21,675 bases of DNA from a virus. Taxonomy: Duplodnaviria; Heunggongvirae; Uroviricota; Caudoviricetes. Of this stretch, positions 12,144 through 21,675 are shown piece after piece. The first letter of the stretch is position 1; each line of letters opens with the position of its first letter. The DNA lies in IMG/VR virus record IMGVR_UViG_2728369593_000011; one strand, 5' to 3'. The position numbers and the translations under genes were made by a program. The notes below the pieces were generated by a model. It worked only from the letters and a program-made list of their open reading frames with translations, did no database searches and was not told the DNA's origin.

Positions 12144-12160
12144 TTTCAAAAGTGTAAATC

Positions 12161-12197
12161 AGAACCACTCGTATAGCGGGTGGTTCTCTGTTTTATT
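12161..12197 (+). terminator. Rho-independent terminator (plus strand)
   Basis: agaaccac (12161-12168) / 11-nt loop / gtggttct (12180-12187) followed by ctgttttatt. Confidence 0.5.
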
Positions 12198-12259
12198 CGT
12201 GTTGCGACTAAAACTAACTAAAATCACGCATATGAAAGATAATGGGAAAATTATCGCTA

Positions 12260-12697
12260 TCATCGAAGGCATTGCGTCCTAATGTACTCCTGCAAGTAGT
12301 TAACCTGCGCGGTTATCCTGTCGATTCCACTTCGGAGACGGTAATAATTGAGTTCAGCATCTGCTGTAAGTCCTGGGGTTTCTCCATTGCCCATGCCGCT
12401 GGCTCCGGTCGTTGACTTTGCACAGGTGGCGGCGACTTGCAGGCGCTTACGCCCAGCAGAAACATCAGCACGGAGACTTTCGATAGTCGCATTAGCATCA
12501 GCAAGCTCCTTTGTGTATCTGGCGTCAAGTTCTGCTACATCACGTTGCCGCTTCTGCATATCAGCGATGATGGATGTGGCTTTATCGCGCTGCTCTTTGT
12601 AGGCGATGGCGTTATCACGGTAATGATTAACAGCCCATGAAAGGCAGACGATGAGGCAGATGACCAGAACGTAGATAATCGCGGTTACTCTGCTCAT
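12260..12697 (-). CDS. Rz: Spanin inner-membrane subunit Rz
   Basis: ATG at 12697: [39 protein letters not shown]...[16 protein letters not shown]... resembles lambda Rz; overlaps the endolysin stop (ATGA). Confidence 0.9.
12313..12498 (-). CDS. Rz1: Spanin outer-membrane lipoprotein subunit Rz1 (embedded in the +1 frame of Rz)
   Basis: [61 protein letters not shown]: lipobox, proline-rich segment, embedded in Rz as in lambda. Start codon uncertain. Confidence 0.7.
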
Positions 12698-13192
12698 TGT
12701 TGCCCCCACAAACAGACTTCACGCTCAATCTCACGGCGAGTCATCAGCCCTTTCCATTGCTTACCGCCAGCGTATGTCCAGCGCCGTAGCTGATCACATG
12801 CGCCTTTGATATCGCCCTGGTTTATTTTGCGAAGTAAGCGTCGATGTTCTGAAATTGCCAGCGCCCACGTTGTAAACGAACGAGTAAAGAGCGCCGCGCG
12901 TTGTTTCCGGTATATCGACTTTGATGTACGGGTTTATTTGTCTGGCGACCGTGGCAAGGTCTTTATTCAGGAGGGCTTTGCATTCTGCTTCGGTATACGT
13001 TTTACCGGGCATGATGTCTTTTCCGGTGTGTCCGTGACATACAGTCCATACGCCAACGATATCTTCGTATGGTATGTAGCTGACACCTTCCAGGCCATCG
13101 TCACCACTCGGACCAGTGATGAGCACAGACGCTATGGCAACAGCCCCACCACCAATAGCAGCAGCAACAGCCTTGCGTAATGACGGAGACAT
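12694..13192 (-). pseudogene. R: SAR endolysin (phage 21 R-type lysozyme) with 1-bp insertion near 12835
   Basis: N-terminus [61 protein letters not shown]... matches the P21 SAR endolysin pattern. After ...[12 protein letters not shown] the track frame ends ([13 protein letters not shown]-stop at 12794), while the adjacent frame reads [47 protein letters not shown]-stop (12694). Confidence 0.85.
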
Positions 13193-13400
13193 TATTCACC
13201 TCTCGCAGCCTTACGCTTATCTTCTTTAATCTTGAAATAAAGATTTGTCAGATACGTCAGCAGGCCAAACAGCAGACTCCCCAGCACACCTATTCGCCAC
13301 CCACTGGGACGGAGAGACTTTGTCCAGCAGCTGCAGTAACCAGTACTCCCGTCCCCACCGCTGACGTGGTGTATGACACACCTGTTGTGATTTTTTCCAT
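13192..13400 (-). pseudogene. S: Pinholin (phage 21 S-type class II holin) split over three frames (two indels)
   Basis: From ATG 13400: frame 0 [14 protein letters not shown]..., frame +1 [18 protein letters not shown], frame +2 [33 protein letters not shown]-stop. Together these follow S21 ([42 protein letters not shown]...KIREDRRKAARGE). TAATG overlap with the endolysin start; GGAGA RBS. Confidence 0.75.
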
Positions 13401-13440
13401 CTGATGTATGTCTCCGTCACCGCCGACAGAAAATGAAAGT

Positions 13441-13481
13441 AAAGAAAAACAAAAAAGCCGCCAGTGTCACCCACTGACGGC
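13441..13481 (-). terminator. Rho-independent terminator-like hairpin upstream of the holin (minus strand)
   Basis: Minus-strand GCCGUCAGU-GGGUGAC-ACUGGCGGC (one mismatch in stem) followed by UUUUUUGUUUUUCUUU. Confidence 0.45.
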
Positions 13482-13656
13482 CAACGCCGGGAGCCGTGAT
13501 TATGGCATTCAGGCTCTGCTAAAAATGCCAGATAACATTCCGGCCAACCCCTGATTCAGGTTATAAATGACACAATATCTTGACAACATCCGTCACTGTC
13601 TGTCAGAAAATGTACTGCCAAGTATAAGTATCATGTGAAGTACATCTACCCGTTTT

Positions 13657-13692
13657 AGCCAGCGTCCTTCAGAGTGGGCGCTGGCTTTTTTT
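13657..13692 (+). terminator. Rho-independent terminator oriented on the plus strand, abutting the nanS-p stop
   Basis: agccagcg (13657-13664) / 14-nt loop / cgctggct (13679-13686) followed by T-run to 13692; on the minus strand it lacks a U-tract. Confidence 0.45.
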
Positions 13693-13693
13693 A

Positions 13694-15548
13694 TTATGAT
13701 GCCGGTGCATTTATCTCCAGCACCAGACTTTCTATCTCAACGCCATACGCTGCATTTTTTGTAACATCCGTCAGCGTCAGCGCATTCAGTCCCAGTGTCA
13801 GACTGTCTTTTATAACCTGGAATGCCGGGCCAGCCACTCCATTCAGTTTCGGAGTAACCGTGGCACTGCCGGCGGTGAACACCAGCTCCGAGCGTCTGCC
13901 AGTCGTTACCGTAATCGCCGAACTCCCCCAGCTTCGTGTTTCCGGCTTTCCTGTCGATGCATCAGATTCACTCTGCCGTCAGTGGTCTGAGTGAAGTACG
14001 ACATCAGGAACGGATTACCGGTACCCGTCATCGCCACACCATCAGGAACGGGAGCATCCGTATACAGATAAATCCCCAGCCCGAACTGATTGTTGGTCAG
14101 TGCGCCTGACAGGCGGAACTTACAGGTCAGTCTGCCGCCCTGTGTCAGCAGGGTAATTGCGTCATCCACCGGATGCGTCAGGGACCAGGTTTTATTGCTC
14201 TGCTTGGTGATCTTAAATACACCATCTGACAACTGAATTCCGCCATCCTTAATGCTCCAGCCCTGCGCAGCAGCATCTCCGGCTGTCGGCAACAGGGAGA
14301 TTGTGCGTACGGATGCATCTTCAGACGGCCCCGATGGCGTGTCGCCGCCGGGCGAGGGTTTGATTTCCGGTGCCTTACCACTAATGAAGGCTAAGGTGCG
14401 ACCGGCTACGTTCAGAATAGCAGTTGCCATACGATCGGGAATAATGCCACGACGCGCCCATGAGCTGAAATGCGTCGGGCGATTTGATGATACCCAGTTT
14501 TTGTTCGTTCGGGATGCCGAACCGTAATAACCAGACCCGGCAATATCAGGATCTTCTGACGGGTTGTTTGTCGGTGTATTAACTCCGCTACCATCGGTCA
14601 TAAAGGGAACAAAATAAATCTGCTGGGATTCTTTACCTTTATATGCACCATATACCACTTCATATTGCGTACCGTGTTCTTGTTTCCACGCGTATGTCGT
14701 GTCGCCACAAAGTCCAGGGGACTGATGCCGGACTTCCACCGTCGACACTGCGCCGCCAGCCCGGCAAGGTCAGCACGGAACTGCTGTACCATTGCAAGAA
14801 ATGCTGCTGGCTGCTGGGCGTAACTGGCATTCGTCATATCGAATTCCCCCTGCATCCAGCATATCGCCAGCAAAACGTTTTTCGGGTTTTTCTGCAATGC
14901 TGCCTTCGTGCGGAAAAGCAGATCCTGATATAACGGCTTACCCACTCCCCAGCGAGCCGAATCCTGACTGGCCCCCGTGGACTCGCTGAATGTCCCCTCC
15001 GTGCCCTGGGTGAATGCCGAACCACCACGACAGCATGGTACCAGCAGGATCCCCGCGTTATTCGGGATATACGGGAGCAGTTTTTTGGCAATATGTAAAC
15101 CCTGGCCGACACAGCCGTACTGCCCTTTGCTCAGGTCAGCCCTCGGATGATTCAGCGTACTCATATCCTGCACATCATGCAGACAGTGGTCAGCCGGAAT
15201 AATATCGTTATATCTGCAGGCAGCCCCGCCCGGCGTCACTGTACTGCGGCGCGCCAGCTGTTTAATGCGCGGATCCGGAGCATCGTATGAATCCGGCAGC
15301 GGAAGCCCTTCACCGTAAGCCATGGCATTGGATTGCCCGGCCAGTACGATGACGTAGTACCAATCCGGCTCAGATGAAGGGCCGACCTGTGGCTCTCCTT
15401 CAATAGCCACCGCCTGCATCAGTGTGTACGGCGTAATGGCAACCGGTCCGCCGTATGGCTGCCAGCCCTCTTTCAGTTTGTGTGTCAGCTTTTCCGCAAG
15501 GTCTGACGGCGACGCCGCCCTGACAACATCGTAATGTTTAATCGACAT
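13694..15548 (-). pseudogene. nanS: Prophage-type sialate O-acetylesterase (NanS-p-like), fragmented by at least two frameshifts
   Basis: Track ORF 14598..15548 has a prophage NanS-p-like N-terminus (MSIKHYDVVRAASPSDLAEKLTHKLKEGWQPYGGPVAI...) and an esterase motif VIVLAGQSNAMAYGEG. The protein continues in another frame (13906..14748, ...TTYAWKQEHGTQYEVVYGAYKGKE...) with a junction near 14700, then in a third frame (13694..13882). GGGAGAAA RBS before ATG 15548. Confidence 0.7.
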
Positions 15549-15634
15549 CGAATTTCTCCCGTGTAGAGGAACAGAGTTAAAAAGCCGGAAGCGGAATCAA
15601 ATCACAGGATGACCATCTGCCAGTGGCAGGTCAT

Positions 15635-15663
15635 AAAAAAAAAGGCTAGCGCAATGCGCAGCC
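15635..15663 (-). terminator. Rho-independent terminator (minus strand) between the cargo block and nanS-p
   Basis: Minus-strand GGCUGCGC-AUU-GCGC(U)AGCC (8-bp stem with 1-nt bulge) followed by UUUUUUUUU (plus-strand A-run 15635-15643). Confidence 0.5.
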
Positions 15664-16092
15664 AGAACTCACAAGGAAAATGATAAAAGGAATAACACTA
15701 GTGATGTACGCATGGCGCCTCCCGCTAAGTTCTGCAATGATCAAACAGAACTCGCTACGTGCCCTTAAAACTCGATCATTTAGCCCCTCCAAGGAGGATT
15801 CACCATGCGGTTGATTTTTTAATAAACAGTAAACAAAAAAGTCAAGAATTATTCATTCTGTTCTTTCATCATCGGCCACAGCAATACCACAATGCCGCAG
15901 ACCAGAGCGCCATCAGTCAGTACCAACATTATCCTGCTGGTGAAATCCATCATCACCATCACTAAAAGCAGGATCACAACAGCAAGCAGACACAGTTTAT
16001 AAAACAATGTTCAGAAAACGCATTCAGCATGCCTAAGGTTCTATTCCTACGAATAGCCAACTTGCAACTTAAAATATTATTTATGCAGCCAA

Positions 16093-16335
16093 TTAAATTC
16101 TGGTCCTTACAATATCAACCTGAAGATTCTTATCTTGTGCTGATTGATAAATGACAAACCTTTTACTACCTGCATTGAAAGAAGTAGACAAAACCAGACA
16201 ATTATCATAACGAGCAAGAACATAATACCAACCATCATTATAATTAATCATTTCATATTCTTTCTTAAACTGCGGTTTGTAATATCCTGTCAGAAATGAA
16301 AAAAGCCAAAAATATGCCACAAAAGCAATCATCAC
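16093..16335 (-). CDS. Hypothetical protein (80 aa), probable C-terminal continuation of the upstream membrane protein across a homopolymer frameshift
   Basis: ORF (V)MMIAFVAYFWLFSFLTGYYKPQFKKEYEMINYNDGWYYVLARYDNCLVLSTSFNAGSKRFVIYQSAQDKNLQVDIVRTRI begins 5 nt after the previous ORF's stop, one frame offset. Confidence 0.4.
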   Translation of the reverse strand: MMIAFVAYFWLFSFLTGYYKPQFKKEYEMINYNDGWYYVLARYDNCLVLSTSFNAGSKRFVIYQSAQDKNLQVDIVRTRI

Positions 16336-16339
16336 AATC

Positions 16340-16852
16340 TCAAAAAAAATGTTTTTTTATAAATGGCTTATCATAGAAGCATGATACCGATAAAAATCGC
16401 CCATAAGATCTTATCGAAATTGTAACCGCCAGCGCAATCGCTGCTGACAGTAGCAAAAGAGGTACCTGAATCTTCTGTCTCAATATAGAAAACTCAATAA
16501 TTGCCGGCACAAACAATAATTCCACAGCAAAATAAAGGCGAAATACATTTAGCTCTTGCATAGAATGTTTTCTTTTCACTGCGAAAAAGAATACAACACC
16601 AATACCCCAACCGATAAGAAATATAGCAATGACGATAACTGCAAAAAATAAACTTCTGGCAACATCATCAACACCTGCACCTACAATCCACCATGGGAAG
16701 CCGTAGTAAAAAGAAGTACCCCATCCATAGAAATAAGCACTCCCCCATCCAAGGCATCCCATGTAGGCAATAAAAAGTGAAGAACTCCTGAGCAGCGCAC
16801 CATCCTTCATAACCACCCCAATACAAGATGATAACATTGGCTTACAACTCAT
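16340..16852 (-). CDS. Hypothetical polytopic membrane protein (AT-rich cargo gene downstream of PR'/tR')
   Basis: 170-aa ORF rich in aromatic and hydrophobic segments (...GWGSAYFYGWGTSFYYGFPWWIVGAG..., ...FFAVIVIAIFLIGWGIGVVFFFAV...). Likely start at ATG 16810 (MKDGALL) preceded by GGGGTGG. Ends at a TGA inside an A7-CA-T8 tract. Confidence 0.5.
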   Translation of the reverse strand: MSCKPMLSSCIGVVMKDGALLRSSSLFIAYMGCLGWGSAYFYGWGTSFYYGFPWWIVGAGVDDVARSLFFAVIVIAIFLIGWGIGVVFFFAVKRKHSMQELNVFRLYFAVELLFVPAIIEFSILRQKIQVPLLLLSAAIALAVTISIRSYGRFLSVSCFYDKPFIKKHFF

Positions 16853-16949
16853 AACAAAAGCAATTCAATGCCGTCAAGAGGTTACAGGCTAAAAAAACTC
16901 TATTACATAGCAGCCAGCATGTTTACCGTACAAGTACAACTCAGGGCAT

Positions 16950-16977
16950 AAAAAAAACCCACTCGGCAGCGGGTTTA
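16950..16977 (-). terminator. tR'-like rho-independent terminator downstream of Q
   Basis: Minus-strand AAACCCGCU-GCCG-AGUGGGUUU (9-bp stem with one G-U pair) running into a U8 tract; about 50 nt downstream of the predicted PR' start. Confidence 0.6.
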
Positions 16978-17009
16978 TACATTTTTTACAACATACCAAA
17001 TTTGCATGA

Positions 17010-17038
17010 AGTATATGGCTTTTAATCCAGTTTTGCAA
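17010..17038 (-). promoter_or_regulatory. PR'-like late promoter (sigma70 -35 TTGCAA / 17-bp spacer / -10 TATACT) overlapping the 3' end of Q
   Basis: On minus strand: TTGCAA (plus 17033-17038), 17-nt spacer, TATACT (plus 17010-17015). Position matches lambdoid late promoters. Confidence 0.4.
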
Positions 17039-17711
17039 TATTTTGCTGTAAAAATGCTGCCTTTTGTTTTGAACGTGTTCTCGTCACAAGCAATAAAGCA
17101 TCACTATCAAGCTGTAGAAAAATGTGCTTCATTGCAACCCAGCGTTCAGTAAATGTCTCGGACCAGTTTTTTGTTGTCACTCCCACCAATGATGCCAGTG
17201 TCTGGTATTCATAGGCCTCACGCCCTGCAAGTTCGCTCTTCACATCCTGTGCAGCCAGCCAGATTAACGTCTTCAGGCGATCCAGTGTCTTACCTGCAAT
17301 TTTTCTGTTACTTAACAAATCTTTAAACTCGCTCCATGCCCATTGCGTTATGGTGACCTGATGCCCCCATCGAACGCTTTCGCTGTAACACCAAAGCAAC
17401 CATGCTTTCTGATGTTCATCGAGAGACAAAACCGCGCGGCGCCATGAAGAGGTTGAGAATTCAACCGGGCTGACCAAAGCAATGGATGAACCTTTTGCGT
17501 ACGACTGCTTACCGGAAGTCGGCGTATTATCCAGCGTAATCATCTTGCCAGTTACCACATCCAGAATGCGCGGCTTCTTTCGTTTGTATGTACCAGTATC
17601 AAATTGTGCATGCTCCTGCCAGGCTTCGAGCTGGCCTTTCGTTGCTCCGTTCAAGTCAGCAGTAGCTGCCATAAGTTGCTCACGAACATACTGTAAATAT
17701 TGGGTATTCAT
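17022..17711 (-). CDS. Late-gene antitermination protein Q (not lambda-Q or Q21 type)
   Basis: 229 aa from ATG 17711 (MNTQYLQYVREQLMAATADLNGATKGQLEAWQ...LDEHQKAWLLWCYSESVRWGHQVTITQWAWSEF...) with AAAGGA RBS. Sits between the rusA/ylcG nin genes and the lysis cassette, with promoter and terminator immediately downstream. Family call is from context and recalled annotations. Confidence 0.7.
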   Translation of the reverse strand: MNTQYLQYVREQLMAATADLNGATKGQLEAWQEHAQFDTGTYKRKKPRILDVVTGKMITLDNTPTSGKQSYAKGSSIALVSPVEFSTSSWRRAVLSLDEHQKAWLLWCYSESVRWGHQVTITQWAWSEFKDLLSNRKIAGKTLDRLKTLIWLAAQDVKSELAGREAYEYQTLASLVGVTTKNWSETFTERWVAMKHIFLQLDSDALLLVTRTRSKQKAAFLQQNIAKLD

Positions 17712-18184
17712 GCAGTAAATCCTTTCTATATTTTGGCATAATTCTTCAACATTCGGTAATCGTTCAAAACCGAATCGGGGAAACGACATAAGCACAGGAG
17801 CCCCCAGCGACAGCGAAGGAGTTCTGATATATAAGACTCAGACATCATTCATTCCCCGGTTCTCCAATATCTGTTTCACTCATCATCCATAACTACCTGT
17901 AATTGCCCCCCTTTTTTTGTAACAGTTCTTATATTGCTATATAGAATAGCCATTACTAATGCTTTTAAATTTAATAAAATAAAAATTATAAAAAACATAA
18001 AACACCACGCAAACACACTTAATAAAAACACCGTTACATTAAAAGATAATAAAAACCGCAATAAAAAACGAATAAATCAATTGTCTCACGCAATTATAAA
18101 ACATCATATTGATTACGCACCTTGTATTACAAACTCATGTATGTAAAATACGCGCACCATTCAAAAAAAGGAAGACAATAACAT

Positions 18185-19147
18185 ATGAAAAAAAGTGTCA
18201 TCGCTGGCGTCTTTATTGCTCTGTCATTTACCACGTGTTCAGCTATCGCGAACAGCCTTGCATTATCATTAGCAAATGATGATGCAGGGAAGTTTCAACC
18301 AATACTTAATGATATTTATGGCAATAAACATGAAAACAGAGATGATTACTCACAAGGCTTATTTCTGGGATATAGCCACGATATCTCAGACTCGAGCCAA
18401 TTATCTCTCCATATTGCGCAAGATATTTACTCTCCATCAGGCAGTAATAAAAGACACAACACAGCTGTAACTGGAGACAGAGCTTTTAGTGCATACACTC
18501 ACACTGGTATTGAATGGAACTCCCTTGCGAATGACTGGATTCGCTATCGATTAGGTACTGACATAGGTGTTGTTGGCCCCGACGCAGGCGGTCAGAAAGT
18601 ACAAAATAAAGCTCATGAGATTATTGGGGCAGAAAAATATCATGCATGGGATGATCAAATAGAGAATCGCTACGGTTATACTGTAAAAGGGATGCTATCC
18701 ATGACACCAAGTATGGATATTTTAGGTGCTAATGTTGGATTATACCCTGAAGTTTCTGCTGTTACTGGAAACTTATTTCAATATGTAGCATATGGCGCAA
18801 CCATTGCCATTGGTAATGATAAAACCTTCAATTCGGATAATGGCTTTGGTCTGCTGGCTCCCCGTGGTTTAATGCATATGTCCGATACAAGCGGATTCAA
18901 ATACAAGATTTTTGCAGGTATGGAAAGACGAGATGTCAATCGCAACTATACTCTCGAAGGAAAAACAATACAGACGAAACAAACAACAGTATCGCTAAAC
19001 AAAACTGTTGATGAATATCAAGTTGGCGCAACAATTGGGTATGCACCTGTAGCCTTCACACTAGCATTTAATAAAGTAACATCAGAATTCAAGACAGGGG
19101 ATGACTATTCATTTATAAATGGAGCAATCACCTCTTTTTTTAACTGA
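18185..19147 (+). CDS. lpxR: Outer-membrane lipid A 3'-O-deacylase LpxR-like protein
   Basis: 320-aa ORF with signal peptide MKKSVIAGVFIALSFTTCSAIA. Counting from the predicted mature N-terminus (NSLALSLANDD...), N9, D10, S34 and H122 fall on the LpxR active-site positions as I recall them (Asn9, Asp10, Thr34, His122). AGGAAG RBS; AT-rich codon usage. Confidence 0.65.
   Translation: MKKSVIAGVFIALSFTTCSAIANSLALSLANDDAGKFQPILNDIYGNKHENRDDYSQGLFLGYSHDISDSSQLSLHIAQDIYSPSGSNKRHNTAVTGDRAFSAYTHTGIEWNSLANDWIRYRLGTDIGVVGPDAGGQKVQNKAHEIIGAEKYHAWDDQIENRYGYTVKGMLSMTPSMDILGANVGLYPEVSAVTGNLFQYVAYGATIAIGNDKTFNSDNGFGLLAPRGLMHMSDTSGFKYKIFAGMERRDVNRNYTLEGKTIQTKQTTVSLNKTVDEYQVGATIGYAPVAFTLAFNKVTSEFKTGDDYSFINGAITSFFN

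Positions 19148-20151: not shown

Positions 20152-21675
<1,524 letters not shown>

Follow-up and report, generated by a model that had tools for sequence, protein, structure and literature searches.

The window analyzed here is the entire contig AKYH01000002.1 of the draft assembly GCA_001605745.1, 21,675 nt in length. Its genes follow the order Q antiterminator, membrane protein, esterase, class II holin, lysozyme, Rz, Nu1, and terminase, and the order from Q to terminase is identical in phage 434, Escherichia coli C3, and E. coli AMSHJX01. Judged by its gene order, the segment has the canonical layout of a lambdoid-prophage late region. The esterase gene lies 3' of Q, at the stx position, and 5' of holin S, which is the location of NanS-p genes in lambdoid late regions. 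In agreement with the first-pass annotation, which had placed the esterase immediately upstream of the lysis genes, the holin, lysozyme, and Rz genes adjoin it downstream.

The reading path of the whole esterase gene runs from 15548 to 13694 on the minus strand, as determined by alignment to four homologs that are intact at 617 aa (E. coli C3, phage 434, E. coli 4/1-1, and Stx2 phage 86). The path measures 1,855 nt, which corresponds to 1,851 nt plus four inserted bases. In megablast searches against phage and complete E. coli records, the 1,851-nt intact counterpart of this segment is annotated as a SASA family carbohydrate esterase or a 9-O-acetyl-N-acetylneuraminic acid deacetylase; the gene is thus a nanS-p, encoding a SASA-family sialate O-acetylesterase. 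The same searches placed nanS-p in over 2,000 E. coli genomes as well as in numerous Stx and lambdoid phages. Together with the lysis cassette, it is multicopy in many E. coli genomes, with a median of 2 and a maximum of 16 places per genome. The NanS-p family, its genomic position, and its mosaic variability have already been described.

As deposited, the NanS-p-like gene at 13694-15548 is spread over three frames, as had been reported, with ORFs of 316, 280, and 62 aa on the minus strand. ORF1 (14598-15548, 316 aa) encodes the DUF1737 domain (aa 4 to 49) and the start of the SGNH/SASA domain; it is authentic up to residue 268, while its remaining 48 residues are out of frame. ORF2 (13906-14748, minus strand, 280 aa) continues with the rest of the esterase domain including His359, then the linker and the beginning of the C-terminal DUF6645, or lectin-like, domain. 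The last part of this C-terminal domain is encoded by ORF3 (13694-13882, minus strand, 62 aa), which continues to the natural stop codon.

Compared with all four intact homologs, four single-base insertions are the sole length differences in the esterase gene. The first, at 14743, is a C on the plus strand and a G in gene sense (GTGTC[G]ACGG, inserted base in brackets); it falls in codon 269 and is missing from 86 other alleles. The second, at 14712, is a G on the plus strand and a C in gene sense (CTGGA[C]TTTG, codon 279). The third, at 13955, is again a plus-strand C, or G in gene sense (GCATC[G]ACAGG, codon 532), and its flanks are identical in all 85 of the other alleles aligned. The fourth, at 13890, is a plus-strand G, or C in gene sense (ACGCT[C]GGAGC, codon 553). 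Homopolymer slippage was considered as the origin of these bases and rejected, as none of the four extends a homopolymer run.

The homologous path accordingly follows frame 0 to codon 268, shifts to +1 for 30 nt, and enters +2, the frame of ORF2, where it stays up to codon 531. It then returns to frame 0 for 64 nt before shifting to +1, the frame of ORF3, in which it reaches the natural stop codon. Aligned with intact NanS-p, the deposited sequence gave a continuous single-frame match with none of the homologs, so the break reported in the first-pass annotation stands at the level of the contig sequence. Both zones in which breaks had been suspected, near 14700 and at 13900-13990, were correctly located; the count of two lesions was too low, because each zone contains two +1 insertions, four in total. 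In the second zone, the stretch with all three frames open, previously estimated at about 100 bp, spans only ~51 nt (13961-13911) according to the positions of the stop codons. Deleting the bases at 14743, 14712, 13955, and 13890 yields a single stop-free ORF of 617 codons.

The product of the esterase gene with the four extra bases removed, hereafter the repaired product, is 616 aa long and possesses the three-domain architecture of NanS-p, which the deposited sequence distributes across its three ORFs. Residues 4 to 49 match DUF1737 (PF08410; E = 2e-15), residues 66 to 262 match PF03629 (E = 4e-12), and residues 467 to 577 match DUF6645 (PF20350; E = 4e-18). At the level of structures, residues 60 to 379 match NanS (PDB 3PT5; E = 6e-122), and residues 421 to 613 match the crystallized, lectin-like C-terminal domain of NanS-p (PDB 6YP6; E = 9e-30). 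Both this three-domain layout and allelic mosaicism have been described for NanS-p of Stx phages (PMC10462455).

Catalysis by E. coli NanS requires Ser19 and His301, with no catalytic Asp (PMC9063846, citing Rangarajan 2011). By alignment to NanS, the block I Ser and the block IV His of the SGNH family are both present in the repaired product. The GQSN motif of block I (15327-15338, minus strand) contains the predicted nucleophile Ser73 (codon 15332-15330), which aligns with Ser19 of NanS in 3PT5. Block IV has the sequence RPTH, a variant described for the phage 86 allele (PMC10462455); its His359 (codon 14472-14470, minus strand) aligns with NanS His301 and falls in ORF2. As deposited, the catalytic residues therefore do not reside on one polypeptide of ~617 to 657 aa; they are united on one only once the four bases are conceptually deleted.

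These assignments bear on the fate of the N-terminal fragment. The first-pass annotation had noted that this fragment keeps GQSN, which is borne out by the motif at 15338-15327, and had regarded a truncated active enzyme as conceivable. When we checked whether the first fragment alone covers the catalytic domain, we found that it does not: ORF1 keeps Ser73 and its authentic part ends at residue 268, before His359. With the first frameshift at codon 269, both His359 and ~110 residues of the catalytic domain are missing. Because these parts lie beyond the frameshift, ORF1 is not a credible truncated active esterase, given the residues on which NanS catalysis depends (PMC9063846); the catalytic His is encoded 3' of the first break. 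Taken at face value, the deposited gene is predicted to be dead as an esterase, since Ser73 and His359 sit in different ORFs.

We then asked how widely the inserted bases are shared. The comparison set consisted of 85 to 86 other nanS-p alleles, drawn from 80 IMG/VR loci and from E. coli and phage records. None of the 85 to 86 alleles aligned carries any of the four inserted bases, and around 13955 and 13890 the flanks barely vary from allele to allele. Exact-pattern scans gave the same picture: a 28-mer bearing the insertion at 13955 had no match in genome, metagenome, and viral collections, and a 29-mer bearing the insertion at 13890 had none in genome and metagenome collections, while the insertion-free 28-mer at the latter site had more than 120 matches in viral contigs. 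Among ~15 billion proteins, the ORF1 product occurs on AKYH01000002.1 only, as does a 132-aa truncated lysozyme from the same contig; the intact terminase of this contig is present on 7 to 12 contigs. A frameshift site conserved among homologs, as expected for recoding, was found in 0 of the 85 to 86 alleles, and recoding would need four separate +1 events.

Apart from the insertions, the gene is a mosaic of well-preserved natural alleles. Its 5' third and its 3' third are ~100% identical to the allele of phage 434 and E. coli C3. The middle third matches the allele of phage 86 and E. coli 4/1-1, including the RPTH variant of block IV; this segment (~14950-14330, 621 nt) is 99.7% identical to 551 E. 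coli records, from which it differs only by the two inserted bases. After repair, the three thirds differ from their nearest natural alleles by 1, 0, and 1 nt, respectively. The tally for the whole esterase gene is thus four insertions against ~2 substitutions, with no nonsense mutation, no deletion, and no other damage. The nearest whole-gene allele is just 95% identical. None of 207 alleles joins this 5' third to this middle third, the best candidate having 80 mismatches, while the combination of the middle and 3' thirds occurs naturally with 9 mismatches. No record of the exact repaired protein was found among ~15 billion proteins. Natural mosaicism of nanS-p has been reported (PMC10462455).

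The esterase gene is not the only one on the contig with extra bases when near-identical relatives are used for comparison. The class II holin gene (13192-13400, minus strand) carries two +1 insertions, at 13346 and 13295, and removal of both gives a 68-aa holin. In the SAR-endolysin/lysozyme gene (12694-13192, minus strand), removal of one +1 insertion at 12835 gives a 165-aa lysozyme. The major capsid gene is broken by one extra base at 3677, the removal of which restores the canonical full length, and the membrane-protein gene is broken by one at 16342, without which it would encode ~250 aa. A further extra base, an A at 15648, lies just 5' of the esterase gene.

No single base-for-base sibling prophage was found, as the contigs that share the terminase carry different Q-to-lysis modules. 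Since there is no sibling with an identical lysis/esterase segment, composite references were used for comparison in place of one sibling prophage. Private changes were scored over 5,733 nt (within 12269-18051) covered by at least five close, locally similar references. This region has 8 private non-homopolymer +1 insertions versus 1 private substitution. Upstream of the esterase gene, 2 substitutions and 6 single-base indels separate the segment 15560-19371 from E. coli AMSHJX01; all of these indels but the A at 15648 alter run lengths, in both directions (A8 to A9, A7 to A8, C7 to C6, A8 to A7, and TT to T). Against strain E2865, the segment 17101-19371 shows 2 deletions and no substitution. 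Spontaneous mutation in E. coli produces substitutions far more commonly than indels, and its indels arise mostly in homopolymer runs. The changes on the contig, dominated by indels over 7 kb, do not follow such a spectrum of natural decay, as the private insertions outnumber the private substitutions, lie outside runs, and are shared with no other sequence examined.

The non-homopolymer insertions are also unevenly distributed. Eight of them are clustered in 12835-15648, often paired at distances of 5 to 65 nt, and only one is located in the 10-kb structural module. Compared with its siblings, this head/tail module has 13 to 38 substitutions, one +1 insertion, and one 8-bp deletion between direct repeats, and its ratio of substitutions to indels looks natural. 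All nine non-homopolymer insertions fit a zero-mer overcall under the 454 flow order TACG, and one of the six cyclic orders reaches 9 out of 9; because this test was devised after inspection of the data and is weak (p of ~0.04 under an unconditioned null), we take the fit as a hint of 454-type error that is suggestive only.

Taken together, we consider it most likely, with a probability of about 0.7, that the esterase breaks are technical single-base indel errors in a low-quality draft contig. A technical origin, which the first-pass annotation did not mention, is now the leading explanation on the strength of the contig-wide indel spectrum. It is favored because the insertions are private and lie outside runs, because there are almost no substitutions, and because the run-length changes are of both signs. 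In this scenario, four spurious single-base insertions in the consensus of AKYH01000002.1 would create the three-frame appearance, and nanS-p of the real strain would probably be one 617-codon ORF. The errors may have come from flow-based sequencing (454 or Ion Torrent) at low coverage. The clustering of the insertions is not predicted by a uniform error process and counts against one; one would have to assume a local cause in addition, for instance that this stretch had low coverage or was covered by a single read, or that its consensus is muddled because the segment recurs in several prophages.

The alternative that survives best, although we regard it as unlikely, is that the insertions are real. 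In this case nanS-p would be a strain-private pseudogene in a cryptic, IS-disrupted prophage, with frameshifts in lysis and head genes as well, and no functional esterase would be made. Real decay is plausible because the prophage has suffered genuine damage. Its tail assembly chaperone gene is interrupted by an ISEc13 fragment (1-467), and the 8-bp deletion between direct repeats alters gpU. A transposase is found at the right end, so that both ends of the contig are IS fragments; such ends are expected when a shotgun draft breaks at repeats and thus also fit the technical reading. Moreover, the loss of holin and lysozyme would benefit the host. Broken copies of nanS-p are not rare either: 12 of 100 distinct alleles from the fetched loci are broken, mostly by a single lesion each, and complete E. 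coli genomes carry fragmentary nanS-p annotations, including IS-interrupted copies such as those interrupted by ISEc20 in O145:H28 strains. An IS-modified C-terminal variant of NanS-p, CTR3, has also been described (PMC10462455).

The lesions themselves speak against real decay. Eight private non-homopolymer +1 insertions against a single private substitution make a very unnatural spectrum. Within the esterase, four lesions would have accumulated in one non-toxic gene alongside ~2 substitutions and without deletions or nonsense mutations, while the other broken alleles mostly have one lesion. The only other allele with a comparable pattern (L151; 6 gaps and 1 mismatch) likewise looks like the product of an error-prone draft. 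Given that no other sequence shares the insertions, there is no lineage in which decay could have accumulated, and selection cannot account for four lesions in the esterase gene.

Technical error may also have taken the form of an assembly chimera, in which reads from at least two paralogous nanS-p copies were collapsed into a 434-like/ST131-like/434-like mosaic with spurious insertions. This is a sub-case of the technical artifact rather than an independent rival, and we think it rather improbable. In favor of such a collapse, nanS-p and the lysis cassette are multicopy (median 2, up to 16 places per genome), and the insertion cluster coincides with the region repeated among prophages. The junction between the 5' and middle thirds, unseen in 207 alleles, and the unrecorded repaired protein point in the same direction, as does the inserted C beside a T at 13295 in the holin gene, which coincides with a natural T/C polymorphism. 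However, the flanks of the esterase insertions agree with those of the locally closest alleles and show almost no variation at 13955 and 13890, and these insertions are therefore not split SNPs. The middle and 3' thirds are combined in nature, with 9 mismatches, and the gene is naturally mosaic (PMC10462455). We therefore rejected split SNPs or collapsed alleles as a general explanation, which fits only the holin site at 13295 and none of the four esterase sites.

It is highly improbable that the insertions are genuine products of a localized, insertion-biased mutation of the Q-to-lysis segment (8 non-homopolymer +1 insertions in 2.8 kb) with the DUF1737 module still expressed. Least credible of all is a functional split gene, whether through an active ORF1, noncovalent complementation of ORF1 and ORF2, +1 ribosomal frameshifting, or capsid decoration by DUF1737: ORF1 does retain an intact DUF1737 and the GQSN nucleophile motif, and for gp84, the homologous esterase of phage phi24B, proteolytic release of the DUF1737 domain and its decoration of the capsid have been reported (bioRxiv 10.64898/2026.04.10.717836), but ORF1 lacks the catalytic His359 (PMC9063846) along with ~110 residues of the SGNH domain, rescue would take four independent +1 recoding events of which none is conserved in 86 alleles, the major capsid gene of the same prophage is also broken and would leave no capsid to act on, and the capsid type of phi24B differs from the lambda-like head module found here.

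The main import of a probable technical origin is one of caution. If the contig is taken at face value, nanS-p, holin, lysozyme, and capsid genes would be called pseudogenes, and a decayed prophage or a truncated esterase would be inferred, while the spectrum of lesions marks the breaks as probable consensus errors. Should the breaks be real, the only result would be a further inactive copy of a gene of which many E. coli genomes have several.

Comparison with known systems places the gene among the prophage esterases. The chromosomal NanS (YjhS; PDB 3PT5) shares the GQSN nucleophile and the catalytic His with the repaired product; it differs in lacking the DUF1737 and lectin-like C-terminal domains and in not being prophage-borne. 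The other broken nanS-p copies in public records are interrupted as well, but mostly by one lesion, in contrast to the four private non-homopolymer insertions seen here. The NanS-p proteins of 933W (L0105/933Wp42), phi24B (vb_24B_21/gp84), Stx2 phage 86 (gp03), and phage 434 (CPT_434_71) have the same three domains as the repaired gene, and their genes occupy the same position between Q and a class II holin. Unlike these, the deposited copy has four +1 insertions, which put Ser73 and His359 in different ORFs.

The major capsid protein gene (3240-4293, minus strand) is split into open reading frames of 209 and 143 amino acids by a +1 insertion at 3677. The inserted base is single and outside any homopolymer (context GATGA[C]TATTC), it is present in none of the five siblings (near-identical public sequences aligned to this part of the prophage), each of which is 99.4 to 99.8% identical, and its deletion in silico restores a full-length capsid protein. 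The lysozyme and class II holin genes (12694-13400, minus strand) carry private +1 insertions at 12835, 13295, and 13346. Through such insertions the lysozyme is shortened to 132 amino acids (versus 165) and the holin, a protein of 68 amino acids elsewhere, is left as two fragments. Aligned with Escherichia coli FDAARGOS_1059, the segment 12300-13700 contains three insertions and four substitutions; 10355-12300 contains no indels and two substitutions.

Between 12835 and 15648, non-homopolymer insertions tend to be paired (15648/15643, 14743/14712, 13955/13890, and 13346/13295), with 5 to 65 nt separating the members of a pair and ~500 to 900 nt separating the pairs. Weak read-to-read joins could give rise to such paired insertions.

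Run lengths differ in both directions at six sites from those of relatives that are otherwise 99.8 to 100% identical: A8 to A9 at 15643, A7 to A8 at 16342, C7 to C6 at 17905, A8 to A7 at 18162, TT to T at 19132, and C3 to C4 at 19994. The change at 16342 cuts a membrane-protein gene (~250 amino acids) into parts of 170 and 80 amino acids, and that at 19132 alters the C terminus of an LpxR-like lipid A deacylase.

The nanS-p esterase gene (13694-15548) is itself a three-part mosaic, composed of a 434-like 5' third, a phage 86/ST131-like middle, and a 434-like 3' third, with the 5'/middle junction near 14950-14990. The combination of middle and 3' parts occurs elsewhere with 9 mismatches. The combination of 5' and middle parts was found in none of 207 alleles, the best candidate having 80 mismatches, and is a natural, if rare, recombinant or else a chimera created during assembly. 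Among other public nanS-p loci, L151 (IMGVR_UViG_2721755655_000010) differs from its nearest intact allele by six single-base gaps and one mismatch, and L117 by three single-base gaps and seven mismatches. Because these two copies show several gaps and almost no substitutions, they suggest that part of the apparent nanS-p pseudogene frequency stems from error-prone draft assemblies.

The left contig end (1-467) is a fragment of the IS4-like element ISEc13 (99.4% identical), which interrupts the tail assembly chaperone gene and yields an open reading frame of 177 amino acids (versus 140); the right end (about 20989-21675) encodes a transposase containing HTH and rve domains. With insertion sequence fragments at both ends, the prophage is therefore genuinely IS-disrupted, the contig breaking at repeats. 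In the gene for minor tail protein U (1426-1851, minus strand), close to its 3' end, an 8-bp deletion at about 1501 lies between short direct repeats (AAC.CCAT AACGCCAT) and results in a protein of 141 amino acids (versus 131); unlike the +1 insertions, it looks like a natural slippage deletion.

Two genes represent moron-type cargo: that of the LpxR-family lipid A deacylase (18185-19147, plus strand), flanked by the nin region and Q, and that of a small TonB_C-domain protein (10911-11252, minus strand), between the lysis and terminase genes. The strand of this cargo is either opposite to that in phage 434 and its relatives or identical to it.
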